From: Candidatus Sungiibacteriota bacterium
GTDB lineage: Bacteria > Patescibacteriota > Minisyncoccia > Sungbacterales > HO2-52-23
Length of the DNA stretch: 52,199 nucleotides
Assembly: GCA_016186095.1 (NCBI GenBank)
Contig: JACPMG010000003.1
Coordinates: 1 to 52,199, forward strand
Direction: 5' to 3'
Of the stretch, positions 2,850 through 47,208 are shown piece after piece. The stretch's first letter is position 1; each line of letters opens with the position of its first letter. A program made the position numbers and the translations under genes. The notes below the pieces were generated by a model. That model was not told the origin of the DNA. It did no database searches and saw only the letters and a program-made list of their open reading frames with translations.

Positions 2850-4559
2850 TTAATTTTCCAAAATCACGAAATCTCCGGGCACGCGTACCCTTAACTGGGG
2901 ATTTTTTTGTTTAATTTCATTAATTAGTGCTTTGTCTTCTCCGTTAAGAAAAGCGATGACTGTCGGCTGATTACTGGTAACTAGTAACTGGTTACTAATA
3001 TTCTGCGGCAATACGTACTCCATATTTTTCTCCTTTTGTCCAGTTTCGCGAAAAGTATCTGTGGCAAACATTACGGTCTGCGCGGGCACGCTGATGCCGC
3101 GCACTTCAACTCCGGGGAGATTTACCACCACATATTTTTTGGTCTCATTCGGAAGACCGTCTAGAAATTTGCCAAGATGCCATAAATCGGTTGAGAAAGC
3201 AAAATAGGTCTCCTCGCTTCCGGCCCAACGGATAAAATAATTCCGGTAGGTAAGAATAGGGATTAGCGTCAGAAGCAAAATCGCCAGAAGCGCCACCTCT
3301 TTTTTTACCCTCTCAAGTTGGCCTATATACGTCGGCCATTTTAACTTCTGCAGATCCAGCCAATTTATAATCTTTTGGTAAATCCACCACGCCCCCAAGC
3401 CTGATAAAATCATCACCGGCGGGATTAGGCCGATGGAGCGAAGCGCATGAGGAAGGCCTTCGCGCGTTAGAGTGGCAGGGAGAGACATAAAGAGGAGCCA
3501 GGCTAGTAAGCTTGTAGTTTGTAGCTTGTAGCTTGTAGCGCGGAAAAATAGCTGACGGAGCATAAGGATAAAACCCGTGAGGAAGAATATGGCTACAACA
3601 GATTGGAGTTGGGGCTGGCAGGCAAAATTATGCCGCCAGTTGCAGTCGCCTCGTATAAAAAACATACCTAATGTTGCCAGATTTGATTTTATAAATTCCT
3701 TCAGAGGCGATATGGATGAGAAAATAGATACGTCTCCGGCTCTTCCCAGAAAGTCCTGCGGATTTTGTACAAAATGTAATCCGAGGGGAAGAGCGACCAC
3801 GAAGGTTATGAGAAAAAAAAGTAGTACCGCGCACGGCGCACAGTATTTATTCGTATAATTGGTATTCATTCGTATATTGGTATCGGTGTTCTTCCACCAT
3901 TTCCACAAATACCAAATAAGTGGAACTGCTAGGACAAACGGTATGAATCTGAAAGCAATGTACGTGTGAAAGCCAAGACCGATAAAAATCCCGGCCCAAA
4001 CCATATCCAGAATTTTTCCTTGCCGAAGCCCTTTTAGCAAAAAATATATTCCAAACGTTGCCAAAAACGGGATCATGATTGCCCGAAACCCTATGCGGGA
4101 GAAATTGATGTGCCAATAGCTCGTGGCCAAAAAGAAAGAGGAGAGCAGCGCTACGAAATACGAATTGGTACGAAAGTACGAAAGATTGTTTTTCGTAATT
4201 TCGTATTCTTTCGTATTTCGTAGCCAATGCGATTGTCCAAACAGTTCTTTGGTTAAAAGGTAAACTCCGAGAATGGTTAAAGTTCCAAAAATGGCGCTGA
4301 CTATTCGCAATGCCCATGGCTCAATTCCAAAAAGCCGAAGCGAGAGCGCCTGCAAATTTATAAATAGCCCTTCGCGGCCGTTATTTTCCGGATAAAACAC
4401 CTTGAAGTCGCCCGTGGCAATGGCTTCAAGCGCGTTATTCCCGTTCATGGCCTCATCCGGATAAAGTCCGGGCGGGACTTCGGTGATTTGGTAGAAACGG
4501 AAAAATGCGCCTATGGCTAGGATAAAAATAAGGGTGGCGAATTTCTGTCTTTTGCTCAC
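2850..4559 (-). CDS. ArnT/PMT-like GT-C glycosyltransferase, second paralog
   Basis: 569 aa with a GTG start. Polytopic, with loop motif LYPDEAMNGNNALEA. Carries three in-frame oligo-repeat modules. Confidence 0.8.
   Translation of the reverse strand: MSKRQKFATLIFILAIGAFFRFYQITEVPPGLYPDEAMNGNNALEAIATGDFKVFYPENNGREGLFINLQALSLRLFGIEPWALRIVSAIFGTLTILGVYLLTKELFGQSHWLRNTKEYEITKNNLSYFRTNSYFVALLSSFFLATSYWHINFSRIGFRAIMIPFLATFGIYFLLKGLRQGKILDMVWAGIFIGLGFHTYIAFRFIPFVLAVPLIWYLWKWWKNTDTNIRMNTNYTNKYCAPCAVLLFFLITFVVALPLGLHFVQNPQDFLGRAGDVSIFSSISPLKEFIKSNLATLGMFFIRGDCNWRHNFACQPQLQSVVAIFFLTGFILMLRQLFFRATSYKLQTTSLLAWLLFMSLPATLTREGLPHALRSIGLIPPVMILSGLGAWWIYQKIINWLDLQKLKWPTYIGQLERVKKEVALLAILLLTLIPILTYRNYFIRWAGSEETYFAFSTDLWHLGKFLDGLPNETKKYVVVNLPGVEVRGISVPAQTVMFATDTFRETGQKEKNMEYVLPQNISNQLLVTSNQPTVIAFLNGEDKALINEIKQKNPQLRVRVPGDFVILEN
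3508..3540. repeat. Tandem 7-mer AGCTTGT array inside a CDS
   Basis: agcttgt agtttgt agcttgt agcttgt agcg, translated on the minus strand as ATSYKLQTTS. Confidence 0.7.
3847..3885. repeat. Tandem TTCGTATA(A)TTGGTAT duplication inside a CDS
   Basis: Two adjacent copies, translated as NTDTNIRMNTNYTNKY. Confidence 0.7.
4150..4224. repeat. 75-nt (25-codon) palindromic ACGAA-rich element inside a CDS
   Basis: GCTACGAAATACGAA (4150-4164) is the exact reverse complement of TTCGTATTTCGTAGC (4210-4224). The length is a multiple of 3 and there is no stop. Confidence 0.75.
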
Positions 4560-5035: not shown

Positions 5036-7467
5036 TGTACCTTTTCTATTTATATCTTTTATTGATTTTTGTCATAGTCCTGGCTCTGCTGGCGGTTTTG
5101 ATATTGCGCGGATACGCCCGCCGCGGCCTGATTTCCCGTTCCCTTAATCTGGAGCTTCTTTTGGTAAGGTTTTCCCCTGTAGCACCGTCTCCGCAGGAGC
5201 CGACTATGCAGCAGATCCGGGAGAAGATCGCCCTGATGGAACAATTCTACAGTCACCTGCATTTAATACGCGACAACTGGTGGAGAAAATTGCTTTACGG
5301 CAAGCCGACTTTTTCTTTGGAACTCACTATCCCCTCAATCGGCGAGGAAATTTCATTTTATGTTGCCGTTCCGCGACGGCTCCGTATGGCTGTAGAAAAA
5401 GTTATTCAGGGTATTTTTCCCGATGCGCAGGTTGAAGTTTCGCGCGACTATAATATTTTCAATCCGGAGGGGCAGGCGGTGGGTGCGGGCATAGTTTTAA
5501 AAGAGAATAGATACTATCCCCTGAAAACTTATCAGAAATTAGAGGGTGATCCCATGAAGGAGTTAACCAACGTGTTTACCAAGCTTGCCAAGGAGGGCGA
5601 AGGAGCCGCGTTACAGATTATCGCGCGCCCGGCGCGCAAAAAATGGAGCAGAAAGTTAAAAGATCGCGCCAAAATACTTTTTGGCGGCAAAAAGGCAAAA
5701 GAGAGCGTATTATTGGGAGCCGTGCGCGGAGCAGGGGATTTCACCGGCATGACGCCCGGGGGCCCTGCGCAGGAGAGACCGGAGGAGCTAAAAAAAATAA
5801 CGCCCCTGCAGGAGGAAATCGTGCGGGCGCTGGAGAATAAGGCATCCAAACCTCTTTTTGACGCCAATATACGCATCCTGGCATCAGCAGTAGATGATGC
5901 GCGGGCACGCTCAATCCTGCAGGGATTGACACTCGCTTTTGCTCAGTTTGCCGACCAGAATTTAAACAGTTTTAAAATAATACCCATGGAGGGTAGGTCT
6001 TTAAAAAGTTTTATCTTCAATTTTTCTTTCCGCGGATTTGACGATTACAGAAAAATTATTTTGGGATCGGAGGAGCTGACGTCTATTTTCCATTTCCCCA
6101 ATATCCTTACCGAAACCCCGAAGCTGAAAATTGTGAAAGCGCGCGAAGCGCCCCCGCCGGTAAATGTTCCGCAAGACGGCCTGCTTCTGGGGTATAACGT
6201 ATTTCGCGGAGAAAAAACCGACATTAAGCTGTCGGAAGAGGATCGGCGTAGGCATTTATATATCATCGGGCAGACCGGAACCGGAAAGTCGGTTTTCTTG
6301 GAGAGTATGATTATTCAAGATATACAGGCCGGCAAAGGGGTGTGCGTTATTGACCCGCACGGAGATATGGTGGAGCGTATTTTGGGGTTTGTGCCGCGGC
6401 ATCGAGCGCAGGACGTGGTTTATTTCAACCCCGGAGATGTGGCGCGCCCCATGGGCTTGAACATGCTCGAATACGATCCTAATTTTCCCGAGCAGAAAAC
6501 TTTTATTGTAAACGAACTTCTCTCCATTTTTGACAAACTTTACAATATGTCCATTGCCGGAGGCCCGATGTTTGAGCAGTATTTCCGCAACTCCACGCTT
6601 CTGGTTATGGATGATCCAACGTCGGGCAACACTTTAATCGAAATTGAGCGGGTGCTTACCGATAAGCCTTTTCGTGACCTTAAACTTTCGCGCTCCAACA
6701 ACATCGTGGTGAAAAATTTCTGGACGCAGATTGCGGAAAAAGCCGGAGGAGAAGCATCGCTGAAGGATATGGTGCCTTATATTGCCTCCAAGTTTGATAA
6801 TTTTATTGCGAACGAAATCATGCGTCCCATAATCGCGCAGGAGAAATCCGCTTTTAATTTCCGCGAGGTAATGGATAATCAAAAAATACTTCTGGTCAAT
6901 CTTTCCAAGGGGCGTCTGGGCGATCTGAATTCTTCCCTTATCGGCCTCGTGATCGTGGGCAAGCTCCTGATGGCGGCACTCTCCCGTACCGATCAGCCCG
7001 AGGAGCGCAGAAAAGATTTTTATCTTTATATTGATGAGTTCCAAAACGTTACCACTGATTCTATCGCGACCATCCTCTCGGAGGCGCGAAAATACCGGCT
7101 TGATCTTATCATCACCCATCAATTTATCGGACAGTTGAAAGAAGAAATCAAAAAAGCGGTTTTTGGAAACGTAGGCTCCATGGTTTCTTTCCGGATCGGA
7201 TCGGATGACGGCGAATTTATGGCCAAGCAATATAAACCCGTTTTCTCCGAGCAGGATTTGCTGAATATAGATAACTTCAACTGCTACGTGAAGCTTTTAA
7301 TAAAAGGCCAGACCTCGCCGTCTTTCAGTATGAAGACCTATCCTTCGGGCAAGGGCGAGAAAGAAGTCGCCGAGATGATAAAAGAGATTTCCCGTACCAA
7401 ATACGGCAGGCCGCGAGAAGAAGTGGAGCGGGAGATCATGGAAAAACATCAGAAGCCAAGCTTTTAG
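5035..7467 (+). CDS. VirD4/TraD/TrwB-like type IV coupling-protein-family P-loop ATPase
   Basis: 810 aa with an N-terminal TM segment. Walker A is IIGQTGTGKS and Walker B-like is FYLYIDEFQN, followed by a THQFIGQL block. Confidence 0.75.
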   Translation: MYLFYLYLLLIFVIVLALLAVLILRGYARRGLISRSLNLELLLVRFSPVAPSPQEPTMQQIREKIALMEQFYSHLHLIRDNWWRKLLYGKPTFSLELTIPSIGEEISFYVAVPRRLRMAVEKVIQGIFPDAQVEVSRDYNIFNPEGQAVGAGIVLKENRYYPLKTYQKLEGDPMKELTNVFTKLAKEGEGAALQIIARPARKKWSRKLKDRAKILFGGKKAKESVLLGAVRGAGDFTGMTPGGPAQERPEELKKITPLQEEIVRALENKASKPLFDANIRILASAVDDARARSILQGLTLAFAQFADQNLNSFKIIPMEGRSLKSFIFNFSFRGFDDYRKIILGSEELTSIFHFPNILTETPKLKIVKAREAPPPVNVPQDGLLLGYNVFRGEKTDIKLSEEDRRRHLYIIGQTGTGKSVFLESMIIQDIQAGKGVCVIDPHGDMVERILGFVPRHRAQDVVYFNPGDVARPMGLNMLEYDPNFPEQKTFIVNELLSIFDKLYNMSIAGGPMFEQYFRNSTLLVMDDPTSGNTLIEIERVLTDKPFRDLKLSRSNNIVVKNFWTQIAEKAGGEASLKDMVPYIASKFDNFIANEIMRPIIAQEKSAFNFREVMDNQKILLVNLSKGRLGDLNSSLIGLVIVGKLLMAALSRTDQPEERRKDFYLYIDEFQNVTTDSIATILSEARKYRLDLIITHQFIGQLKEEIKKAVFGNVGSMVSFRIGSDDGEFMAKQYKPVFSEQDLLNIDNFNCYVKLLIKGQTSPSFSMKTYPSGKGEKEVAEMIKEISRTKYGRPREEVEREIMEKHQKPSF

Positions 7468-13964: not shown

Positions 13965-14048
13965 ATTGGCCATACCGAGACCCCCGTTTTTATTAAACCT
14001 GCCTGCCGGCAGGTCTCAATAGAGGAAGAGAAATAACTCTTTAATATT

Positions 14049-20868: not shown

Positions 20869-20959
20869 ACGCCGAGGCAAAATCGTTCGTCGGCTGATTT
20901 TGTTCTCAAGCGTCTTATCTAAACCCAAGGCGGGTTTTTATTTTGTTATAATAAAACAT

Positions 20960-21457
20960 ATGGACAAGAATATTATTATAGGAATTCTCGCGATCATAGT
21001 CATTATCGGAGGGCTAGTGTGGTTCGGGCGCCCCTCTTCAAATAATCAGGCCGCCGGTTTGGCATTGAATTCCAACGGGGTTCTTAGGGCGGAAGAAACG
21101 GATTTTGACTTTGGTTCAATTTCCATGGCGGCCGGTAATGTAAGACACGCTTTCAGAATAAAAAATGTAGGTTCGGAGGCGGTGACTATAGGCAAGATGT
21201 ATACCTCCTGTATGTGCACCACGGCATATCTTGCCGCAGGCGATAAAAAGTTCGGACCTTACGGCATGCCCGGACACGGGTTTATTCCAAAAATTAATGA
21301 AACCGTAAATCCTGGCGAGGAAGCGGAAGTGGAGATCGTATTTGATCCGGCGGCACACGGCCCGGCAGGAGTGGGGGAGATACAAAGGGTAGTGACCATA
21401 GAAAATAATGGGCGTGAACGATTGGAGCTCCAATTCTCCGCTATGGTGACGCCTTAA
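20960..21457 (+). CDS. DUF1573-like protein with an N-terminal TM anchor
   Basis: FDFGSISMAAGNVRHAFRIKNVG...YTSCMCT matches the DUF1573 pattern (FDFG..., SCGCT). Confidence 0.65.
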   Translation: MDKNIIIGILAIIVIIGGLVWFGRPSSNNQAAGLALNSNGVLRAEETDFDFGSISMAAGNVRHAFRIKNVGSEAVTIGKMYTSCMCTTAYLAAGDKKFGPYGMPGHGFIPKINETVNPGEEAEVEIVFDPAAHGPAGVGEIQRVVTIENNGRERLELQFSAMVTP

Positions 21458-21461
21458 TTTA

Positions 21462-22244
21462 ATGAACAAGAAACTTATAATTTTAGTTTCTCTGGGCGTC
21501 CTGCTTTTTGCGGCGGTATTCTTCTTCCAATACGGGAACATCGGCACGACCGCTCTTTGGAATCTATCAAATGGCGGAAAGTGGCTTCTGCCGCTTGTGG
21601 TGGTGTCTTCCCTTATAGACAGCATCAACCCCTGCGCCTTTTCAGTTCTGCTTCTTACCATCGCTTTCCTTCTTTCCATCGGCAAGATGCGCTCGAGCAT
21701 CCTAAGAATCGGCGGGTCCTATATCCTCGGTATATTCGTCATCTACATTCTTATCGGTCTTGGCATACTGCAGACCTTGCATCTTTTTGACACGCCGCAT
21801 TTTATGGCCAAAGTCGGCGCATCGCTTCTTATAGCGCTCGGGGCGATAAATCTGATAAATGAATTTTTTCCAGCGTTTCCGATTAAATTAAGAATCCCGC
21901 AAGCGGCTCATCGCAAAATGGCCGAACTTATGGAAAAAAGCTCTATGCCCACGGCTTTTCTTCTGGGCGCGCTCGTAGGGCTTTGTGAGTTTCCCTGTAC
22001 CGGCGGGCCGTACCTGATGGTTTTGGGGCTTCTGCATGATCAGGCGACATATCTTAAGGGTCTTGGATATCTGCTTCTTTACAACGCCGTATTCATCCTG
22101 CCGCTGGTCGTAATGCTTCTTATCGCGAGCGAAGAAACACTTCTTGGGAAAGTGCAGGAATGGCGGAAAAAAGAAACAGGAAACATGCGGCTTTGGGGCG
22201 GAATTGCCATGGTCATTCTGGGAGTCATCATATTTCTTCTATAG
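21462..22244 (+). CDS. ccdA: CcdA/DsbD-type thiol-disulfide transmembrane electron transporter
   Basis: 260 aa, about 6 TM. The two conserved Cys motifs are DSINPCAF and EFPCTGGPY. Confidence 0.75.
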   Translation: MNKKLIILVSLGVLLFAAVFFFQYGNIGTTALWNLSNGGKWLLPLVVVSSLIDSINPCAFSVLLLTIAFLLSIGKMRSSILRIGGSYILGIFVIYILIGLGILQTLHLFDTPHFMAKVGASLLIALGAINLINEFFPAFPIKLRIPQAAHRKMAELMEKSSMPTAFLLGALVGLCEFPCTGGPYLMVLGLLHDQATYLKGLGYLLLYNAVFILPLVVMLLIASEETLLGKVQEWRKKETGNMRLWGGIAMVILGVIIFLL

Positions 22245-22247
22245 ATT

Positions 22248-22700
22248 ATGACTATCTTTATAGTTGTAACATCCATAATTGTTATCACGATATCGGCATG
22301 GGTAGTGAATAAATTTCTGCCTTGGGCGGTATGCCCTATTTGCGCGGGCGTGGCAGGCACCTGGCTTTGGATTTTATTCGGGATTTATACGGGCTGGCTG
22401 GAGGCCGAGGGCTGGAAGCTGGCAGCCGCGATAGCTATGGGTGGATCGGTCGTTGGGATGGCATATCAGGCGGAAAAATTTCTGCGCCCTTTTCGCTCAC
22501 GGCTTCTTTGGAAGACAATCTTTATTTCCACGGGGTTTGCGGCGGTCTATAGTTTGATTTTATTTTGGCGGGCGGGATTTATTATAGCGGTCGTGCTTCT
22601 GACGATCTTCACTCTTAAATTTTTGGCATGGCCGCGAGCCCGCGCAGTAAAAAGTAAAAAAGTCGAGGAACTCGTAGGCAAAATGGAGGATTGCTGTTGA
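22248..22700 (+). CDS. Hypothetical 4-TM protein with a membrane CxxC (VKOR/DsbB-like role is a guess)
   Basis: WAVCPICAGV at the start of TM2 and a C-terminal DCC. Sits between ccdA and a thioredoxin-fold gene. Confidence 0.45.
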   Translation: MTIFIVVTSIIVITISAWVVNKFLPWAVCPICAGVAGTWLWILFGIYTGWLEAEGWKLAAAIAMGGSVVGMAYQAEKFLRPFRSRLLWKTIFISTGFAAVYSLILFWRAGFIIAVVLLTIFTLKFLAWPRARAVKSKKVEELVGKMEDCC

Positions 22701-22723
22701 AGTTGGAAATAATCTTAAAGATT

Positions 22724-23098
22724 ATGAAAAAGAGCACCCTCATAATTATTGTTATCATCGGAGCGGCACTTGTATCTGTCGGCTATGTCGTCTTTTCCGC
22801 AAGCAAGGGCGAGTCGGCCAGTATGCTTGACGGGTTCGCGCAATGTATCCGTGAAAAAGGAATAATCATGTACGGCGCGGATTGGTGCCCGCATTGCCAG
22901 AACGAGAAGCGATCATTCGGCAACTCGTTCCGTCTGGTGCCTTATGTGGAGTGTCCGCAGGATCCGAAGCGGTGTCTGGCCGCCGGCATTTCCGGTTATC
23001 CGACCTGGATTTTTCCTGACGGGAAAAAACTTGAGGGCGAGCAGGGGACTGAAAAACTTTCACAGGAAAGCGGCTGTCCCCTCGGAATCAAGGATTAA
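22724..23098 (+). CDS. Membrane-anchored thioredoxin-fold protein
   Basis: YGADWCPHCQNEKRSFG...GISGYPTW resembles the Trx-like domains fused to bacterial VKOR. Confidence 0.65.
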   Translation: MKKSTLIIIVIIGAALVSVGYVVFSASKGESASMLDGFAQCIREKGIIMYGADWCPHCQNEKRSFGNSFRLVPYVECPQDPKRCLAAGISGYPTWIFPDGKKLEGEQGTEKLSQESGCPLGIKD

Positions 23099-23119
23099 AA
23101 ATTTAATCAAAAACTAAAT

Positions 23120-24052
23120 ATGGAAGAGAAAAATATAAAAGATCATATACTTCCGGCAAGCATCCTGATTGCTGCCGTCGTTATTGCCGGTGCCTGGGTA
23201 TATACCGCGAGATTAAAGGAAGCTCCGACGCTCCGGCTGCAGAGTGCGTCGGAGATCGGAGTCCCGACTTCGGAGGACGTCGGGAAAAAAGTTCTACCCT
23301 CTCAAGGAGTAGTCTTGCCTATCCGTTGGGGAGATCTTGGCGTCAAAATGGTCAGCGTAGGCCTGATCGATAAAGAGAGATTTGGAACTCTTTATGCGGA
23401 GCGCGGAGGTTTGAGCGCGGAAGAAAGAAAATTTCTTGAGCAGGCCGATAATGGTCAGATAAAGATTACTCCGCATAATTCCGGGATCTGGTTAAATATT
23501 TTTTGGGCCTTGGGATTGGGTACGAAAAATGATATTCTAGATGCAGGACCTATGGTGAGGTATGGCGGCGCGGGCTCGCCCGCCGAAGCCTTGGCGAAGG
23601 CGGGAAATTTTGCTTCAACCGGCGGATGGACTTTATCCAAAGGGGACGCCATGGAGCATTATAGTCGTCATCCTTTGATAGCATTGACGCCGGAGGAGCA
23701 GGAGCTGGTTGAACGCGTGAGTAAAAATATTTATCGTCCCTGCTGTAACAATCCGACCTATTTTCCCGACTGCAATCACGGCATGGCCATGCTCGGCCTA
23801 CTCGAACTTATGGCCTCGCAGGGTGTAAATGAAGAAGAAATGTATAAAGCCGCTTTGCAGGTTAACGCTTACTGGTTCCCGGATACCTATTTGACCATCG
23901 CCCAGTATTTGTCGTCCCAGGGAGTCAGCTGGGAAGAAGTAAATCCCAAAGAAATTTTGGGAGCAAACTATTCCAGCGGCTCCGGGTATCGCAAGATTCT
24001 TGATCAAGTCACCGTACCCGAAAGAAGAGGCGGCGGAAGCTGCGGAGTTTAG
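23120..24052 (+). CDS. Hypothetical membrane-anchored protein with a Cys/His motif
   Basis: 310 aa with CCNNPTYFPDCNHGMAM. Carries two palindromic insertions. Confidence 0.55.
   Translation: MEEKNIKDHILPASILIAAVVIAGAWVYTARLKEAPTLRLQSASEIGVPTSEDVGKKVLPSQGVVLPIRWGDLGVKMVSVGLIDKERFGTLYAERGGLSAEERKFLEQADNGQIKITPHNSGIWLNIFWALGLGTKNDILDAGPMVRYGGAGSPAEALAKAGNFASTGGWTLSKGDAMEHYSRHPLIALTPEEQELVERVSKNIYRPCCNNPTYFPDCNHGMAMLGLLELMASQGVNEEEMYKAALQVNAYWFPDTYLTIAQYLSSQGVSWEEVNPKEILGANYSSGSGYRKILDQVTVPERRGGGSCGV
23223..23285. repeat. 63-nt in-frame double-hairpin element (CTCCGAC/TCCCGAC family)
   Basis: CTCCGACGC (23223-23231)/GCGTCGGAG (23246-23254) and TCCCGAC (23262-23268)/GTCGGGA (23279-23285). Encodes APTLRLQSASEIGVPTSEDVG. 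Confidence 0.75.
23579..23604. repeat. 26-nt palindromic element identical to 9523-9548
   Basis: CCCGCCGAAGCCTTGGCGAAGGCGGG. Read here as PAEALAKAG, but as TRRSLGEGG in dnaX. Confidence 0.8.
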
Positions 24053-24094
24053 GATTATTAAAGGTCGAAGATTATAGATCCTTAAAAAATTATT

Positions 24095-24295
24095 GTGAAT
24101 CAAAATTTAGGAAAATTGTACAGGATTTTACGATTCGCGCTCGCGTTTTGGTGGCTCGGCCCGTGGGCGCCTCAATTTGGTGCCGCATGGGCAAACTGGC
24201 TTATTGTCTTTGTCGGTTGGGTTGCGCTTGCCGAAAGTTTACTCGGCTGGTGCGGACTTCACCGCCTGTTTAAAATAGACAATAGAAACCAGTAG
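24095..24295 (+). CDS. DUF2892/YgaP-TM-like small membrane protein
   Basis: 66 aa with a GTG start. Two TM segments and a conserved Cys near the C-terminus (GWCGLHRLF). Confidence 0.5.
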   Translation: MNQNLGKLYRILRFALAFWWLGPWAPQFGAAWANWLIVFVGWVALAESLLGWCGLHRLFKIDNRNQ

Positions 24296-24353
24296 TTTTA
24301 GGGAAGAATTTAAACAAAGGTCGAAAATTATTAATCTTAAATTAGATAAAACT

Positions 24354-24626
24354 ATGGAGCTTAATAAAAACAAATTTTCGCTGGCGGCAGCGGCAACCAT
24401 GGGCGTTGTTTATGTAGTTTGCGCCGTTTTTGTCTGGCTTTGGCCGGATTTCGCGCTTAAACTCTTCGGCTGGCTGGTGCATTTGGTTAATGTGGACAAA
24501 TTTGCCGGTGATGTTGCCATTACGGCGACCGGGTTTGTTGTTGGGTTGGTCCAGATATTGGTTTACGCTTACGTCGGCGCCTATGTCTTTGCCTGGCTGC
24601 ACAATCGGTTTATGAAAACCGTTTAA
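24354..24626 (+). CDS. Small 3-TM membrane protein (DUF5676-like guess)
   Basis: 90-aa ORF. Confidence 0.45.
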   Translation: MELNKNKFSLAAAATMGVVYVVCAVFVWLWPDFALKLFGWLVHLVNVDKFAGDVAITATGFVVGLVQILVYAYVGAYVFAWLHNRFMKTV

Positions 24627-24654
24627 TAAGGGGTTTAGGTTTTTAAATATATTT

Positions 24655-25350
24655 ATGCATTACGCTTGGCTCATCTGGAGTCTTATGCTTTTGGTTGTTT
24701 GGGCCGCGGTCTATCTTTCTTTAGAAAGTAAAGAAAGTAGAAAGGAGATGCTGGTGGTAAGCCTGTGGACTTCTCTGTTCGGGCTTACAGAGCCCTTATT
24801 CGTGCCGGAATACTGGAGTCCGCCGTCGCTTTTTGATTTGGCGCTAAAGACCGGCTTTGATTTGGAGAGCCTGCTTTTCATTTTTGGCGTTGGCGGTCTT
24901 GCGGTAGTCATCTATGAGAGAATCTTTCGGGTTAAGCATGTAAAAATCAGCGCGGAAGAAAAACACCGGCCGCGTCACAAATATCACCTGCTGGCCATTC
25001 TTTCAGCGCCGATGATCGGTATCCTGTTACTGGTATTTACGGACTTTAACCCTATTTATTCTGTATTCATCGCGCTAATCGGCGGCGGATTGTTTACTTG
25101 GTATTGCCGTCCCGATCTTAAAAAGAAGATGTTAGCAAGCGCATTTATATTTTTGGTACTATATTTTGTTTACTTTCTGACTCTCGTGTTTATGTATCCC
25201 GGATATGTCCAACAAGTCTGGAATCTCTCGGCAATATCAGGAGTTCTTATTTTAGGAATTCCCCTGGAAGAACTTATGTTTGCTTTCGGGATAGGATTTT
25301 TGTGGTCGAGCGCGTATGAGCATATTGGCTGGCGAAAACTCAATTATTAA
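24655..25350 (+). CDS. Lycopene-cyclase-domain-like polytopic membrane protein
   Basis: 231 aa with a PLEE motif (GIPLEELMFAFG). Confidence 0.5.
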   Translation: MHYAWLIWSLMLLVVWAAVYLSLESKESRKEMLVVSLWTSLFGLTEPLFVPEYWSPPSLFDLALKTGFDLESLLFIFGVGGLAVVIYERIFRVKHVKISAEEKHRPRHKYHLLAILSAPMIGILLLVFTDFNPIYSVFIALIGGGLFTWYCRPDLKKKMLASAFIFLVLYFVYFLTLVFMYPGYVQQVWNLSAISGVLILGIPLEELMFAFGIGFLWSSAYEHIGWRKLNY

Positions 25351-25360
25351 AACCTATCGT

Positions 25361-27535
25361 ATGAACCATAAACACAACGCCCAATTTTATACCTGCCCGA
25401 TGCATCCTGAAATAAGACAGGATAAGCCGGGCATGTGTCATGAATGCGGGATGAGTTTGGTGCCTACAGATGCAATCGACGCGCATCATGAACATAAGGC
25501 ATCCACTGACGCACATGATAAGCATGCTGGCCACAGCACGAAAATGTTTTTGAAAAAATTTTGGGTGAGTTCAATCCTCACCATCCCGGTAGTGCTTTAC
25601 GCGGATGTTCTTCAAAAAATCTATGGATGGTCGCCGCCGGACTTTCCCGGATCGGCGTATTTGCCGCTCGTGTTTGGCTCGGTGGTGTTTTTTTACGGCG
25701 GCTGGGTATTTCTGGCAGGAGCATACCGGGAGCTCAAGGCCAGGCTTCCCGGCATGATGACGCTTATCGGTATTGCGATTTTGGCAGCTTACCTCTGGAG
25801 CGTGTACGCGGTATTTGCGGGCGCGGAGGCTTTATTTTGGGAGCTTACGACTTTGATTACCATTATGCTTCTTGGCCATTGGCTTGAGATGCGGGCGGTT
25901 TCAGCCAGCCAAGGAGCGCTCAAAGAACTTTCCAAACTTCTTCCGGATACCGCTGAGGTAATCCGTAACGGCAGAATAGAAACGGTCGCTCTTTCTGAGC
26001 TTAGGGAAAAAGACGTGGTGTTTGTGCGACCGGGAGCTAAAATTCCTGCCGATGGAGTTGTTATGGAAGGTAAAGCGGAAGTGAATGAAGCTATGGTCAC
26101 GGGCGAATCCGCGCCGGTCGCCAAAATGACCAATAGCGCGGTTATCGCAGGCACCATAAATGGTGACGGGGCGCTTAGGATTCGCGTCAGCAGCATCGGC
26201 GAAAAAACATTTCTTGCCGGCGTAATGCGCTTGGTGGCCGAGGCGCAGGCCTCCAAGTCGCGGCTTCAAATTCTTTCAGACCGGGCGGCTTTTTACTTGA
26301 CTATCGTTGCCGTGGCCGGAGGACTCATCACTTTAATAGCTTGGCTCCTGGTCGGTGCTGAAATCGGTTTTGCCGTGGCGCGGCTTGTGGCGGTCCTCGT
26401 CATCGCCTGTCCGCACGCCCTGGGTCTTGCGGTTCCGCTCGTGGCTTCTATTTCAACCACACTTGCGGCTCGTCACGGATTTCTCGTCAAGCAGAGGTTG
26501 GCGCTGGAAGCGGCGCGAAGCACCAATATCGTTCTTTTTGATAAAACCGGAACTCTGACCCGCGGTGAATACGGCGTGACAAATATATGGCCGGTAAAAG
26601 TAGATGAGGAAGAGCTATTTCGGGTGGCCGCGTCAGTTGACATGCATTCCGAACATTTCATTTCCAAGGCCATTGTGAAAAAAGCGGAAGAGGGCGGCGT
26701 TAAAATGGCAGAAGTCAAGGATTTCGCGCGTCTTCCCGGCAAAGGGGTAAGGGGGAGTATAAACGGCGTGGTTATATTTGTCGGCGGGCAGGCGATTTTG
26801 GACGATCTTCAAGTTATGCTGCCCGGGCCGCTTAGAAGCGAGACGGAGGAAGAAAGTAAAAAAGGAAAAACTATTATTTATGTAATTGCGGAGAAAGAAC
26901 TATTGGGTATTTTCGCTCTCGCCGATCTTATAAGAGAGGAGTCGCGCGAAGCAATTCAGGGTTTGAAGGCAATGGGCGTAAAAATTGCGATGGTCACTGG
27001 TGATTCGGAAGGCGTGGCCTCGTGGGTTGCCGGGGAACTGGGCATTGATGAATATTTCGCGAGAGTCCTGCCGCACCAGAAATCGGAAATCGTAAAACGA
27101 TTACAAGAAGGAAAAGCTCCGACGCTCACGGAAGAGAGGTCGGAGTCCCGACCGACTGAAAGTCGCGTCGGGAGAAATAAAGTCGCCATGGTGGGTGATG
27201 GCATTAATGACGCTCCGGCGCTCACCCAAGCAGACCTTGGTATCGCTATAGGCGCGGGCACAAATGTCGCGATTGAATCAGCAGGCATTATTCTTGTCCG
27301 CAATGATCCGCGCGATATTGTGAAAATCATCAAATTATCGCGTCTCACCTATACCAAAATGATTCAAAATCTTTTCTGGGCTACGGGATATAATGTTGTT
27401 GCTCTGCCGCTTGCCGCAGGCGTATTGGTATCAGAAGGAATTCTGCTTCAGCCGGCCCTGGCCGCACTCTTTATGTCTCTTTCCACTATCATTGTCGCAA
27501 TAAACGCGGTGCTTCTCCGAAATAAAGCATTATAG
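25361..27535 (+). CDS. copB: Heavy-metal (copper) translocating P1B-type ATPase, CPH subtype
   Basis: N-terminal YTCPMHPE...CHECGM metal-binding module and a His-rich stretch. TM CPH motif (ACPHAL), DKTGTLT and [14 protein letters not shown]. Confidence 0.9.
   Translation: [724 protein letters not shown]
27117..27173. repeat. 57-nt (19-codon) in-frame double-hairpin element in the ATPase P-domain
   Basis: CTCCGAC (27117-27123)/GTCGGAG (27139-27145) and TCCCGAC (27146-27152)/GTCGGGA (27167-27173). Encodes [19 protein letters not shown] just upstream of [14 protein letters not shown]. Confidence 0.8.
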
Positions 27536-42886: not shown

Positions 42887-43459
42887 ATGCCGAAAAATTC
42901 AAAAAAATTTCCGCCTTCTGCCAAACGCGTCTTCAAGGGCGTACTTTTTGATATATGGCAGTGGAAGCAGAAGATATATAATGGAAGGGTAGAGACGTTT
43001 GAGAGAGTTATACGTTCCGATAGCGTGCAGGTTATTGCCGTGGTCGGCAAAAGAATTATAATTCAGGAACAGCTTCAGCCAAGTTGGCCCAAGGCCATGC
43101 TTACTTTCCCCGGCGGACGCGCGGACGAAGGGGGCAGTATACTTGAGGAAGCAAAACGTGAGCTTTTGGAGGAGACGGGTTATGTTTCGGATGACTGGGC
43201 GCTATGGAAGACCGTCAAGCCCTCCATGACGGTAATTTTTACCATATATATCTTTGTCGCTCGTAATTGTAGAAAAGTTGCCAGGCCCCAGCTTGATGGA
43301 GGCGAGAAAATCAAAAACAAACTTGCATCTTTTGATAAATTCCTCCTGCTTTCCGAAAATCCCAGATTTCGCGAGTCCGAAGTGGCGGCGGAGATGCTCC
43401 GCGCCCGTCTTAATAAACGGAATAAAACTAGGCTCCATAAATTACTTTTTAAAAAATGA
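42887..43459 (+). CDS. NUDIX hydrolase
   Basis: NUDIX box GGRADEGGSILEEAKRELLEETGY. Its TGA overlaps the dnaG ATG. Confidence 0.75.
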   Translation: MPKNSKKFPPSAKRVFKGVLFDIWQWKQKIYNGRVETFERVIRSDSVQVIAVVGKRIIIQEQLQPSWPKAMLTFPGGRADEGGSILEEAKRELLEETGYVSDDWALWKTVKPSMTVIFTIYIFVARNCRKVARPQLDGGEKIKNKLASFDKFLLLSENPRFRESEVAAEMLRARLNKRNKTRLHKLLFKK

Positions 43460-45243
43460 GTTCTCCGATTGATGATATTAAATCCCGCCTTGACTTGGTG
43501 GAGCTGATCCAATCTTACGTTCGTCTCCAGAAAGCAGGGATCAACTACAAGGCCAACTGTCCTTTTCATACGGAAAAAACCCCGTCCTTTTTTGTCTCGC
43601 CCACCCGGCAGATGTGGCATTGTTTTGGATGCGGGAAAGGCGGCGACCATTTTAAGTTTGTCATGGAAATTGAGGGGCATGAGTTTCCCGAGGCCTTGCG
43701 CATGCTTGCCCAACGTGCCGGAGTGGTCTTGAAAAGAGAAGACCCCGCTATTCGTTCCGAGCGTAACCGCCTGTATGATCTTTGCGAGGAGGCGACCAAA
43801 ATTTTTGAAAGGAATTTGGCGCTGACTCCTGCTGTCAAGACGTATCTTAAAAACAGGGGAGTGGTTGGTGAGACCGCGAAAGAATTTCGTATCGGTTTTG
43901 CCCCGCAAAGCTGGGATTTTTTAATGAAGGCGCTTAGCGCCAAAGGTTTTCGCAAAGAAGAAATTGAAAAGTCCGGCCTGGCTATAAAATCAGAAGACGG
44001 AAATTCATGGTATGATCGTTTCCGAGGCAGGATCATGTTTCCGATTGCCGACGGCAACGGCCGCGTAGTTGGTTTTAGCGGGAGAGTATTTGAAGAAGTC
44101 CCGACGCGCTCCGCGGTCGGGACCCCGACTCCCGATAAAAATCGGGACGTCGGGGCAAAGTATGTTAATACTCCGAATACCCTAATTTATGATAAATCTC
44201 ACGTGCTCTATGGTTTTGACAAAGCCAAGCAGGAGATCCGCGGCAAAAATAAAGTGGTGGTGGTGGAAGGCCAGATGGATTGCGTAATGTCGCATCAGGC
44301 CGGAGTGAAAAATACGATTGCGGTATCGGGCACGGCTCTTACCCCTCAGCAGTTGAAGGTCCTGCGCCGGCTCTGCGATACAATCGTAAGCTCTTTTGAT
44401 ACTGATGCTGCCGGAGATACGGCGACTAAGCGCTCTTTGGCGCTAGCCACGGAGTTTGAGTTTGAACGAAAGATTGCCGTGATACCTTCGGGCAAGGATC
44501 CTGCCGATGCGGTTTTAGAAAATCCAAAATCATGGCTTGGTGCGGTGGAGGCGGCCAAACCCGTGGTGGAATTTTATTTTGAAAAATCGTTCCGGGGGCA
44601 TAATCCATCCGGTGCTGACGGCAAAAAAGCCATTTCGGCCACGCTCCTTCCTTTGATTGCGGAGCTGGGGAATGAGATTGAAAAATCCCATTGGGTAAGC
44701 GAGCTTGCGCGCCGCCTCTCGGTGCGCGAAGATTCAGTATGGGCGGAGCTCAAGCGTAAAAATGCCGGAGCCGCGACACCCAAGACCAGCGAGCCGGTGG
44801 AGGCCGGGCGGGTTCCGACCAGGCGCGATCTGCTGGAGGAGCGGATGCTGGCGCTTTTATGTTTTGTGAAGGAGGATTTACGCAAAAAAGAGTTCGCCCA
44901 TCACTACGTTGCTTTCACTTCAGACATAAACCAGCGAATTTTTGAGACACTGCTGGGGGGAAAAGTGACTGTCGCGGCGCCGGAATTGAAAAATGATTTT
45001 GATCTTCTTCGTTTCAAAGGCGAGGTGCTGGTGCAGATGACGCATGATTTGGAGGAGGAGTTTCTTTCCTGTAAACGGGAGCTGGAAAAAGAGTGCATCA
45101 AGGAACGGCTTCTGAAGATCGGCGGGGAAATAGAGAAGAAAGAGAAAGAGGGAGACCGCGTTTTGGTGACCTCTCTCTTGCAGGATTTCCGCGCGCTTTC
45201 TGATAAATTAAAACTGCTATCGCATGATTATGCCCAAAAGTAA
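43456..45243 (+). CDS. dnaG: DNA primase
   Basis: CHC2 zinc finger ([11 protein letters not shown]...CFGCG), a TOPRIM domain ([16 protein letters not shown]). Confidence 0.9.
44098..44155. repeat. About 57-nt in-frame double-hairpin element in the dnaG RNA-polymerase domain
   Basis: GTCCCGAC (44098-44105)/GTCGGGAC (44116-44123). CCCCGAC (44123-44129)/GTCGGGG (44149-44155) encloses TCCCGAT-AAAA-ATCGGGA. Encodes [19 protein letters not shown] just before KYVNTP. Confidence 0.8.
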
Positions 45244-46494: not shown

Positions 46495-46524
46495 GGGCGA
46501 TTACAATAGAAACCAGTTGAAACC

Positions 46525-46665
46525 TCCGGCGTAGCTCAGTGGTAGACCTGCCTGCCGGTAGGCAGGGCGGCTCGCTGTTCCAATCGGAGGATGATCCGCC
46601 TCTGGCGGAAACGAGAAGGTCCCAGGTTCTCAGCCAAAGGCTGATTCGCCTCCGGCGAAGAATCC
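46525..46665 (+). pseudogene. tRNA-Asn-like gene carrying three hairpin insertions and lacking its 3' end
   Basis: After removing 46547-46566, 46580-46609 and 46630-46659, the remaining 55 nt differ at one position from the body of the intact tRNA-Asn at 46700-46771. Confidence 0.6.
46624..46665. repeat. 42-bp direct repeat, left copy
   Basis: AGGTTCTCAGCCAAAGGCTGATTCGCCTCCGGCGAAGAATCC, identical to 47040-47081. Confidence 0.9.
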
Positions 46666-46699
46666 ATAACAATTTTAATTTCATTGTAAAACCATTTTC

Positions 46700-46771
46700 T
46701 CCCCAGTAGCTCAGCGGTAGAGCGGCTCGCTGTTAACGAGAAGGTCCCAGGTTCGAATCCTGGCTGGGGAG
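46700..46771 (+). tRNA. tRNA-Asn (anticodon GUU)
   Basis: Hand fold: acceptor TCCCCAG/CTGGGGA, anticodon loop CTGTTAA, T-loop TTCGAAT. Flanked by a perfect 14-bp leader/trailer inverted repeat. Confidence 0.9.
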
Positions 46772-46798
46772 AAAATGGTTTTACTATTTTTTATACAG

Positions 46799-47041
46799 AT
46801 GTTTTTCATATATGTGTTGCAAAGTATTTCATATGGAACGCGTTATGCCGGTAGTACTGATAATATAGAAAAAAGATTGAGCGAACATAATAAGGGCCGT
46901 TGCCGATATACCAGCGGACGCAAGCCATGGGAGATTGTATATCGGGAAAAATTTGAGTCAAGGGGTGAAGCAATGAAGCGCGAAAAATTTCTAAAATCGG
47001 GACAAGGAAGAAAATGGCTAGACGATAATTTATCCGGTTAG
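46799..47041 (+). CDS. GIY-YIG nuclease family protein (UPF0213-like)
   Basis: MFFIYVLQS..YGTRYAGSTDNIEKRLSEHNKG...KPWEIVYREKFESRGEAMKREKFLKS. About 80 aa from ATG 46799. Confidence 0.8.
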   Translation: MFFIYVLQSISYGTRYAGSTDNIEKRLSEHNKGRCRYTSGRKPWEIVYREKFESRGEAMKREKFLKSGQGRKWLDDNLSG

Positions 47042-47081
47042 GTTCTCAGCCAAAGGCTGATTCGCCTCCGGCGAAGAATCC
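47040..47081. repeat. 42-bp direct repeat, right copy
   Basis: Identical to 46624-46665. Overlaps the GIY-YIG stop codon. Followed by a tRNA-3'-end-like TGCCCGGGGAGG. Confidence 0.9.
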
Positions 47082-47208
47082 TGCCCGGGGAGGTTTGAAT
47101 CGAAACAAAAGTCGTCCAGGGACGAGTGGCTCGCGGGCCAAAGCGAAAGTGCGGCGACCATAATCTTTTTTTCTTGAACCGCCGGAGAATCGGTGGTTTA
47201 ATGTAATC

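Follow-up and report, generated by a model that had tools for sequence, protein, structure and literature searches.

Double-hairpin elements (DHEs) have been described from the mitochondria of Allomyces and Schizosaccharomyces (Paquin, Laforest and Lang 2000, cited in PMC2800124 and PMC10085805). As the citing accounts summarize them, these are short, G+C-rich sequences of two adjacent hairpins with conserved stems and variable loops, scattered in intergenic DNA and in the variable parts of structural RNA genes; they lack flanking duplications, and their near-identity across species suggests transfer. We analyzed a repeat that is like them in these respects (the lack of flanking duplications being seen at one junction, in locus L024) and that occurs in contig JACPMG010000003.1 of a Candidatus Sungiibacteriota bacterium, a member of the Patescibacteria from groundwater. 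The stretch under analysis, hereafter the window, comprises 52,199 nucleotides. Copy A of the repeat, at 23223-23285 on the plus strand, lies inside an open reading frame (ORF). Taken as a whole, the reading that we consider likely is that copy A is a solo, translated copy of a bacterial DHE, and an old, neutral insertion into a linker.

The Rickettsia palindromic elements (RPEs), reportedly described by Ogata and colleagues in 2000, are a second point of comparison; RPE-1 is about 100-150 bp long. In RPEs and in intragenic dimers of repetitive extragenic palindromes (REPs; Di Nocera et al. 2013, PMC3733652), palindromic repeats are found in frame within functional genes, including replication and repair genes, and add about 20-30 residues at tolerant positions with no evident peptide function. 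The repeat studied here resembles them, being apparently read through in frame in functional ORFs: the three copies in the window (63, 57, and 57 nt) are free of stop codons, and 15 of the 18 deep-coding copies (defined below) have a length divisible by three. It differs in its CCGAC core, in its bulged G and bulged C, and in having no unpaired GTAG/CGTC head, and the phyla differ as well. REPs are defined by an unpaired GTAG or CGTC tetranucleotide at one end and, in the CGTC families, by a stem of 8-9 bp starting with A/T pairs and a loop of 4-5 nt (PMC3733652). The present repeat falls outside this definition: CGTC is located inside the stem and bulge, the stems are G+C-rich, and the loops range from 3 to more than 30 nt.

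The arms of copy A had been placed by an earlier, sequence-only reading of the window at CTCCGACGC (23223-23231) pairing with GCGTCGGAG (23246-23254), and TCCCGAC (23262-23268) pairing with GTCGGGA (23279-23285); these positions are exact to the base. Copy A consists of two abutting hairpins with 7-bp outer stems (CTCCGAC/GTCGGAG and TCCCGAC/GTCGGGA), which is the stem layout of the family. A G is extra-helical after the first 5' arm (CTCCGAC-G-CTCC), and a C is extra-helical before the last 3' arm (GGA-C-GTCGGGA). The first hairpin is two-tiered, with 5' arms CTCCGAC-G-CTCCGGC and 3' arms GTCGGAG-ATCGGAG, and the second reads TCCCGAC-TTCGGAGGA-C-GTCGGGA. The two-tier variant, with its duplicated arms, was also seen in loci L029, L045, L074, and L115; its six extra bases explain why copy A measures 63 nt (21 codons) and copy B, described below, 57 nt. 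The predicted minimum free energy of the copy A RNA is -37.8 kcal/mol (z = -3.7), and 0 of 200 shuffled sequences matched or beat it.

The ORF that harbors copy A (23120-24052, plus strand, from the ORF list) encodes an N-terminally anchored protein of 310 amino acids. As the sequence-only reading had stated, the segment encodes APTLRLQSASEIGVPTSEDVG, directly after the N-terminal hydrophobic anchor; a peptide spanning the translated 23223-23285 is, for example, LQSASEIGVPTSEDVGK. The protein has 6680 homologs, mostly from Patescibacteria. In the alignment of homologs, copy A occupies the post-anchor linker, which is variable in all of them. Excision of 23223-23285 turns KE-(21 residues)-KKVLPS into KEEKVLPS, and the homolog consensus is LEEKVLPS. 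Orthologs without the segment, which the same reading had named as a check, turned out to be the rule: the element-derived peptide is present in only four of 120 homologs (the window protein, P0002, P0003, and P0043). In the DNA alignment, the orthologs at L001 and L002 have kept the 5' arms, their 3' arms are substituted (GTAGGAG and ATCGAGA), and the fold of both is no better than that of shuffled sequence (z = -0.9). Because so few homologs carry the segment and the stems have decayed in L001 and L002, we regard copy A as an old insertion inherited within a small clade. Its 21 hydrophilic residues are probably neutral filler with no function of their own in the gene, and an annotator would do best to treat them as mobile-element filler in a linker and not as a functional motif.

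Copy A had been presented as the second copy of its kind. It is a genuine copy; however, the window holds three in-frame double hairpins, not two, the third being located in the gene for DnaG primase. Copy B (27117-27173, plus strand; 57 nt, 19 codons, in APTLTEERSESRPTESRVG) is the copy in an ATPase gene with which copy A had first been compared, and it does have the same arms with different loops and spacing. It is of the canonical form, CTCCGAC-G-CTC..GAG-GTCGGAG followed by TCCCGAC-CGAC..GTCG-C-GTCGGGA. Its host gene (25316-27535, plus strand) encodes a heavy-metal (copper-type) P-type ATPase with matches to the Pfam families E1-E2_ATPase, Hydrolase, and HMBD and to CopA and CopB in the PDB. 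Compared to the CopB structure 3skx, copy B is an insertion that falls between residues 204 and 208, a short way ahead of the GDGxNDAP motif; the ATPase has 24 residues at this site where 3skx has three.

Copy C (44099-44155, not assigned to a strand; 57 nt, 19 codons) was found in a scan for CCGAC...GTCGG and reads TCCCGAC-G-CGC..GCG-GTCGGGA followed by CCCCGAC-TCCCGAT..ATCGGGA-C-GTCGGGG. The primase gene that contains it (43456-45243, plus strand) was identified from the ORF list and from PDB matches to primases. Compared to the Aquifex primase 2au3, copy C is an insertion between GRR..E and KYIN; counted from GRxxxE to KY(I/V)N, the primase is longer by about 16-19 residues, in a loop that varies among primases of the candidate phyla radiation (CPR). 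The nearest full-length relatives of the primase are only about 50-59% identical, and a closer match (82%) ends before the copy C site. The site being a variable loop, this comparison was uninformative on the age of copy C. The folds of copies B and C have z values of -5.0 and -5.6, respectively, and 0 of 200 shuffles were as good. None of the three copies is accompanied by an adjoining UPF0213/Slx1-like GIY-YIG ORF with a tRNA gene, the setting described below for other members of the family, and we therefore class copies A, B, and C as solo copies.

A covariance model, R1, had as its sole input the copies that precede GIY-YIG ORFs on unrelated metagenome contigs. R1 picks exactly three sites in the window: copy A with 45.6 bits (E = 1.3e-7), copy B with 55.3 bits (E = 1.4e-9), and copy C with 58.4 bits on the minus strand (E = 3.5e-10) and 53.9 bits on the plus strand (E = 2.8e-9). 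The next match has E > 2. The window copies are therefore solo members of a nuclease-linked family. Rfam returned no family matching the element, either for the whole window at gathering thresholds or for 23150-23350 at E <= 1, and on the loci from the pattern scan described next it gave only RNase P RNA and tRNAs.

At the nucleotide level, the family follows the pattern NNCCGAC-loop-GTCGGNN, twice, with a bulged G in the first hairpin and a bulged C in the second. The consensus is CTCCGAC-G-CTC(variable helix and loop)GAG-GTCGGAG, then TCCCGAC-(variable helix and loop)-C-GTCGGGA. The layout of the second hairpin is that of the first in reverse complement. This makes the element an inverted dimer, with an architecture that reverse complementation leaves unchanged. 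An exact-pattern scan (CTCCGACGCTC N10-40 GGAGTCCCGAC; one genome per species) returned 67 loci, of which about 64 contain a complete element and three are chance matches in Actinobacteria. The hosts are almost all Patescibacteria (of many classes) and Omnitrophota metagenome-assembled genomes (MAGs); a few element-bearing MAGs are labelled Planctomycetales, Bdellovibrio-like, or Gammaproteobacteria. Long ORFs contain copies in each of the six frames and in either orientation; other copies are intergenic or are located in RNase P RNA or in tRNA-gene fragments, and some copies are nested within the loops of others (L008, L029, L037, L039, and L045). With copies in every frame and orientation, in non-coding RNA genes, and in intergenic DNA, no peptide is conserved. 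A G precedes the element in about 87% of the pattern-scan copies, often as part of AG. In L024, comparison of a tRNA-Thr 5' fragment with its intact neighbor gives the exact bounds of the insert, CTCCGAC...GTCGGGA, with neither duplication nor loss of target sequence; this is the only junction at which the boundaries are resolved to the base. Among 2.9 million viral contigs, one nucleotide match and two distant protein matches were found; the element is nearly absent from them, and a phage vector is unsupported by this search.

In the RNase P RNA of several Parcubacteria, the element is located in the P12 region, on the strand opposite to the orientation of the search pattern. Rfam RF00010 confirms the RNase P RNA in four loci, and three more have the same flanks. 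The hairpins concerned are at 6080-6124 and 6207-6226 in L007 and at 1504-1522, 1606-1650, and 1724-1768 in L048, with further cases in L009, L012, L035, L040, and L065. In L048, P3 is formed by a hairpin of this kind as well, as is an additional pair in the P7-P10 region. Read in the RNA sense, several of the RNase P RNA loops are GNRA loops (GCAA, GAAA, GTAA).

The Omnitrophota contain a subfamily in which a nearly identical 63-nt copy is part of longer repeats rich in GGTGAC / GTGACC (L014 at 1011-1048 and 1951-1988, L015, L018, L023, L044, L059, and L062). Some of these copies are inside very long ORFs of over 1000 codons. The two copies in L014 are 940 nt apart and have identical flanks.

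The conservation of the stems was measured in two sets of sequences. The first comprises 198 CCGAC...GTCGG units from loci that were selected by a protein, as described below, without use of the DNA motif, so that the figure for the outer pairs is unbiased. In 156 of these units both outer pairs are complementary, compared to about 12 expected by chance, and the units display at least ten types of outer dinucleotide pair (TC/GA, CC/GG, CT/AG, AG/CT, TT/AA, and others). The second set is an alignment of 25 members, whose outer pairs had been pre-filtered for complementarity; 97.8% of its cells pair, versus 30-54% with the partners slid against each other. Double-sided changes number 4, 8, and 10, respectively, at the inner pairs 9-28, 10-27, and 43-59 of this alignment, and one-sided changes zero. 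Thus outer and inner stem pairs covary around a fixed CCGAC core, and leaving out the bulged G restores helices of 3-10 bp that differ in sequence. The sequence-only reading had proposed selection or templating on the stems rather than on the peptide and had looked to compensatory changes among aligned copies as its test; these changes were found, and with copies in any frame and orientation and with stems that covary, its proposal is borne out. The conservation of the stems reflects descent from a structured repeat family and not a function of the hairpins in the copy A gene, where the fold has been lost in L001 and L002. Stem mismatches comprise 6 G.U versus 14 A.C; there is no excess of G.U on the sense strand, and selection on the sense-strand RNA is unsupported.

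We counted a copy as deep-coding if a stretch of 50 or more codons without a stop was present on each side of it. The length is a multiple of three in 15 of the 18 deep-coding copies (binomial p = 2e-5); the non-coding copies split 16/9/12. One of the three frame exceptions is copy C, which was measured as 49 nt in this analysis and has a true length of 57 nt, and one of the 15 in-frame copies is a spurious ORF over an RNase P RNA. A frame constraint of this kind speaks against excision from the RNA, and the element appears to be translated. An intron or intervening sequence would have a length free of the frame and would interrupt a functional RNA; here the length follows the frame, and the tRNA copies are in dead 5' fragments. 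A spliced mini-intron in tRNA D-loops was considered and rejected: with the element deleted in silico and the sequence examined in ARAGORN, the two loci in question are 5' fragments upstream of intact tRNA genes. Mitochondrial DHEs are reported, in the accounts available to us, to be retained in transcripts and to be located in variable regions of rRNA; retention of the bacterial element would be a further likeness.

The setting from which the solo copies probably derive was recognized at L037, where the DNA between a tRNA fragment and an intact tRNA-Arg encodes a GIY-YIG protein of 87 amino acids. Relatives of this protein were found with tblastn in L008, L060, and, in degraded form, L004. 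In these four of the 67 pattern loci, a gap of 8-13 nt separates the double hairpin from the start of the downstream GIY-YIG ORF, which extends up to a tRNA gene. We then fetched 80 metagenome loci solely by homology to the ~87-aa UPF0213/Slx1-like GIY-YIG protein. CCGAC...GTCGG units were present within 150 nt upstream of the ORF in 69 of these loci (about 85%), 30 times as densely as elsewhere in the loci. The median distance to the ORF is 19 nt, and variant hairpins were seen in several of the loci outside the 69. A tRNA gene follows 0-120 nt downstream of the ORF in 60 of the 80 loci, and at least 12 different specificities are represented. Among 50 abutting doubles upstream of GIY-YIG ORFs, 40 show the layout with bulged G and bulged C. 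The order of the bulges was considered as a mark of the orientation of the element relative to the nuclease ORF; it is void as such, because the architecture is symmetric under reverse complement.

Upstream, the element is set into a short duplicate of the tRNA that is encoded downstream. This duplicate comprises the first 15-43 nt of that tRNA, and the element breaks it most commonly after nucleotide 10-12 (TAG^CTCA, the caret marking the break). Fifty-six loci could be scored for both features: fragment and hairpins were found together in 40, hairpins only in 9, neither in 7, and a fragment without hairpins in 0. The master context of the element is thus a tRNA 5' fragment with the double hairpin, the GIY-YIG ORF, and the tRNA gene, in this order. 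The element-linked ORFs match the Pfam family GIY-YIG, and among solved structures they are closest to the UPF0213 proteins 1zg2 and 1ywl and then to eukaryotic SLX1. The prokaryotic Slx1-like group consists of minimal stand-alone domains of unknown role, and eukaryotic members of the Slx1 lineage cut branched DNA (Dunin-Horkawicz et al., PMC1564403). The GIY-YIG ORF is the only recurrent neighbor gene found at the element loci, which were not systematically scanned for proteins.

Two inserts in L004 resemble each other in placement: two different double hairpins (1829-1895 and 2169-2219) are located at the same anticodon-loop position (CTG^TGGAAG) in two tRNA-His remnants, which flank the degraded GIY-YIG ORF and an intact tRNA-His. 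This pair hints at site- or structure-specific insertion into the loops of tRNA genes.

The adjacent nuclease, of a structure-specific type, might recognize or cut the extruded hairpins and so mobilize the module in trans; we propose this tentatively, giving it somewhat less than an even chance. With more confidence, we suppose that copies of the hairpin module spread on their own to other places, that only in-frame, stop-free copies in tolerant loops or linkers survive inside genes, and that copy A entered the post-anchor linker in an ancestor of the small clade that now carries it. A wider proposal, which we advance with more reserve still, is that the hairpin, the ~87-aa Slx1-like nuclease, and the duplicated tRNA 5' fragment together constitute an undescribed class of bacterial mobile element. 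Its nuclease would recognize extruded hairpins and move the cassette between tRNA genes, and the hairpin module alone, in the manner of a MITE (a transposable element of miniature size with inverted repeats), would enter hairpin tips and AG^ sites of genes and of RNase P RNA. Such an element would have spread across phyla (Patescibacteria and Omnitrophota) and remodelled proteins by in-frame insertions. A search of the literature, which did not cover subscription journals, found no description of the family or of the nuclease-tRNA-hairpin module.

The family is a cross-phylum bacterial counterpart of the mitochondrial DHEs and of the rickettsial in-frame palindromes, with a candidate enzyme and a tRNA context. 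It differs from the mitochondrial DHEs in its hosts, which are Patescibacteria and Omnitrophota MAGs and not organelles, and the likeness is one of layout, not of compared sequences. Unlike those elements, the bacterial one is often in frame in protein genes, and it is tied to a nuclease gene and a tRNA fragment; the accounts of mitochondrial DHEs available to us report no such tie. We know of no mobilizing enzyme for the Rickettsia in-frame palindromes or the fungal mitochondrial DHEs, and of no dedicated enzyme for CGTC REPs or RPEs; in the bacterial element, a nuclease gene consistently adjoins the master context. The element-linked nuclease is therefore a concrete candidate for the mobilizing enzyme of hairpin repeats, and it comes from a UPF0213/Slx1-like group that is large and functionally uncharacterized. 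For the annotation of ultra-small bacteria, otherwise unexplained inserts of 17-28 residues in conserved proteins, extra helices in RNase P RNA, and seemingly broken tRNA genes may share one cause.

Several observations weigh against the account of copy A and its family given here. Four coding copies (L010, L013, L033, and L055) are 56 nt long, which is not a multiple of three, so that boundaries or local compensations are not fully understood. All of the evidence for retention of the element in mRNA comes from the frame statistics; no RNA run contains the gene. In four groundwater metagenome DNA runs that contain the locus, copy A showed no variation in presence or absence and no joint skipped the element; there is therefore no direct evidence of recent movement. 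The stems of copy A are perfect while those of its orthologs are lost. Simple neutral decay does not account for this, and the perfect stems may point to maintenance or refreshment in this lineage. The 52-kb contig contains no nuclease gene of the element-linked subfamily. As an alternative to mobilization, the nuclease cassette and the hairpins could both be accumulating at the same permissive places.

An alternative is that the hairpins are repair scars or immunity insertions: the nuclease would cut DNA, for example in the D-arm of a tRNA gene or off target at AG^, and the break would be healed by copying in a double hairpin from another copy, which also destroys the cut site. The insert in gene 60 of phage T4, which according to Bonocora and colleagues in 2011 reportedly protects against the linked endonuclease MobA, would be a precedent and is counted in favor of this explanation. 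The displaced tRNA 5' fragment is always accompanied by the element (40 loci versus 0), the element mostly starts after tRNA nucleotide 10-12, at TAG^CTCA, and a G stands before about 87% of the pattern-scan copies; these points are also counted in its favor. However, the intact downstream tRNA keeps the same D-arm uninterrupted, so that protection of the site is not evident, and the copies found in helices of RNase P RNA or within the loops of other copies fit active insertion better. We consider this explanation unlikely; it overlaps with the favored one in what both say about copy A. The family is like the gene 60 insert and its MobA cassette in that a short structured insert in coding or target sequence is linked to an endonuclease gene, and like SegB of phage T4, a free-standing GIY-YIG homing endonuclease, in that a GIY-YIG gene stands among tRNA genes (PMC2330249). 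It is unlike these T4 systems in that its proteins comprise only the ~85-aa Slx1/UPF0213 catalytic domain with no DNA-binding domain, its inserts appear to be read through in frame and not bypassed, and its hosts are cellular, the element being nearly absent from viral contigs.

A second alternative, which strikes us as quite improbable, is a miniature element that is REP-like, derived from IS200/IS605, or similar to REPINs (REP doublets forming hairpins); a tyrosine HUH transposase acting on single-stranded hairpins would move it, and adjacency to the GIY-YIG gene would be incidental. The inverted dimer, the extra-helical bases in each hairpin, the absence of a target-site duplication, and the self-nesting are all in keeping with such an origin, and intragenic REP dimers that encode 20-30 residues are documented (PMC3733652). 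Systems of REPINs and REP-associated tyrosine transposases (RAYTs) are similar in having inverted hairpin doublets, many solo copies per genome, and a single protein gene adjoining repeats. In contrast, the gene that adjoins the present element encodes a GIY-YIG nuclease, where RAYTs are Y1 HUH transposases; intragenic copies are common; and the element flanks the nuclease gene on a single side, where it is set into a tRNA fragment. The unpaired GTAG/CGTC head is lacking, and stem and loop sizes are unlike those of described REP families. Miniature elements of IS200/IS605 have left and right subterminal hairpins in direct orientation, insert 3' of a fixed tetra- or pentanucleotide, and go with a TnpA gene; in the present family the hairpins are inverted relative to each other, and only a G (often AG) is preferred at position -1. 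No transposase gene was noticed beside the copies inspected, though none was screened for. The 30-fold enrichment directly upstream of one nuclease family, in loci chosen by protein alone, also speaks against an incidental association.

It is very improbable that the hairpins are functional mRNA structures selected separately in each host gene, acting in pausing for membrane insertion, in mRNA stability, or as a protein-binding site. The predicted folds are very stable (z from -3.7 to -5.6), copy A is right behind a membrane anchor, where a pause could make sense, and the stems are intact in this lineage. However, the stems have decayed in orthologs of the same gene, copies stand in either orientation relative to the host gene (also in RNase P RNA) and in dead tRNA fragments, the sense strand has no G.U excess (6 versus 14 A.C), and no Rfam family corresponds. 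The idea that the palindrome arose by chance, or that a low-complexity peptide (PT...VG) arose by convergence without shared descent, has practically no standing. In its favor, the window shows no excess of the 5-mers CCGAC (42 copies) and GTCGG (70 copies). It is refuted by the presence of three full double hairpins within 52 kb and of nothing similar in the rest of the window, by about 64 additional complete copies that share the arms, by the complementarity of the outer pairs, and by R1 matches with E values down to 3.5e-10.

The host protein of copy A has no family match in Pfam and carries the conserved motif RPCCNNPTxFPDCNHGMAM; across its family, the strictly conserved Cys/His motif extends to YRPCCNNPTxFPDCNHGMAMLGLLELM. 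The ORF belongs to a same-strand cluster at 20900-27535 that also encodes a DUF1573 protein, a thioredoxin-like protein, the copper-type P-type ATPase, and a SfLAP-like membrane protein (the Pfam match of the last being under the family cut-off). Motif and neighbors suggest a copper or thiol-redox role for this widespread, uncharacterized family of more than 6000 homologs.

The window does contain one GIY-YIG (UPF0213/Slx1-like) ORF, at 46799-47038 on the plus strand (79 aa; found by tblastn, with a match to Pfam PF01541 at E = 3e-15, and aligned). It is about 33% identical to the element-linked nucleases, follows a tRNA-Asn gene, and is without a CCGAC hairpin; it forms no part of copy A. The surrounding region, 46520-47110, is an old tRNA-Asn gene that is split and holds several inserts. 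Four are mini-hairpins of another type, with a GCC...GGC core, at 46547-46566, 46580-46609, 46630-46644, and 46645-46659. A further insert is a cassette of an intact tRNA-Asn (46699-46772) and the 79-aa GIY-YIG ORF, flanked by a perfect 42-nt direct repeat (46624-46665 = 47040-47081). When the cassette and all four mini-hairpins are cut out in silico, the gene is restored and is called by ARAGORN as tRNA-Asn(GTT). This region presents the same theme of nuclease, tRNA, and hairpin with another hairpin family.

A small perfect palindrome at 13998-14013, CCTGCCTGCCGGCAGG, is almost identical to the mini-hairpin at 46547-46566 and may be another copy of the GCC...GGC family. Unrelated to the CCGAC family is a 34-nt inverted repeat at 4150-4224, which is 85% complementary, has a 7-nt spacer, and is composed of TACGAAA-like units (GCTACGAAATACGAATTGGTACGAAAGTACGAAA).

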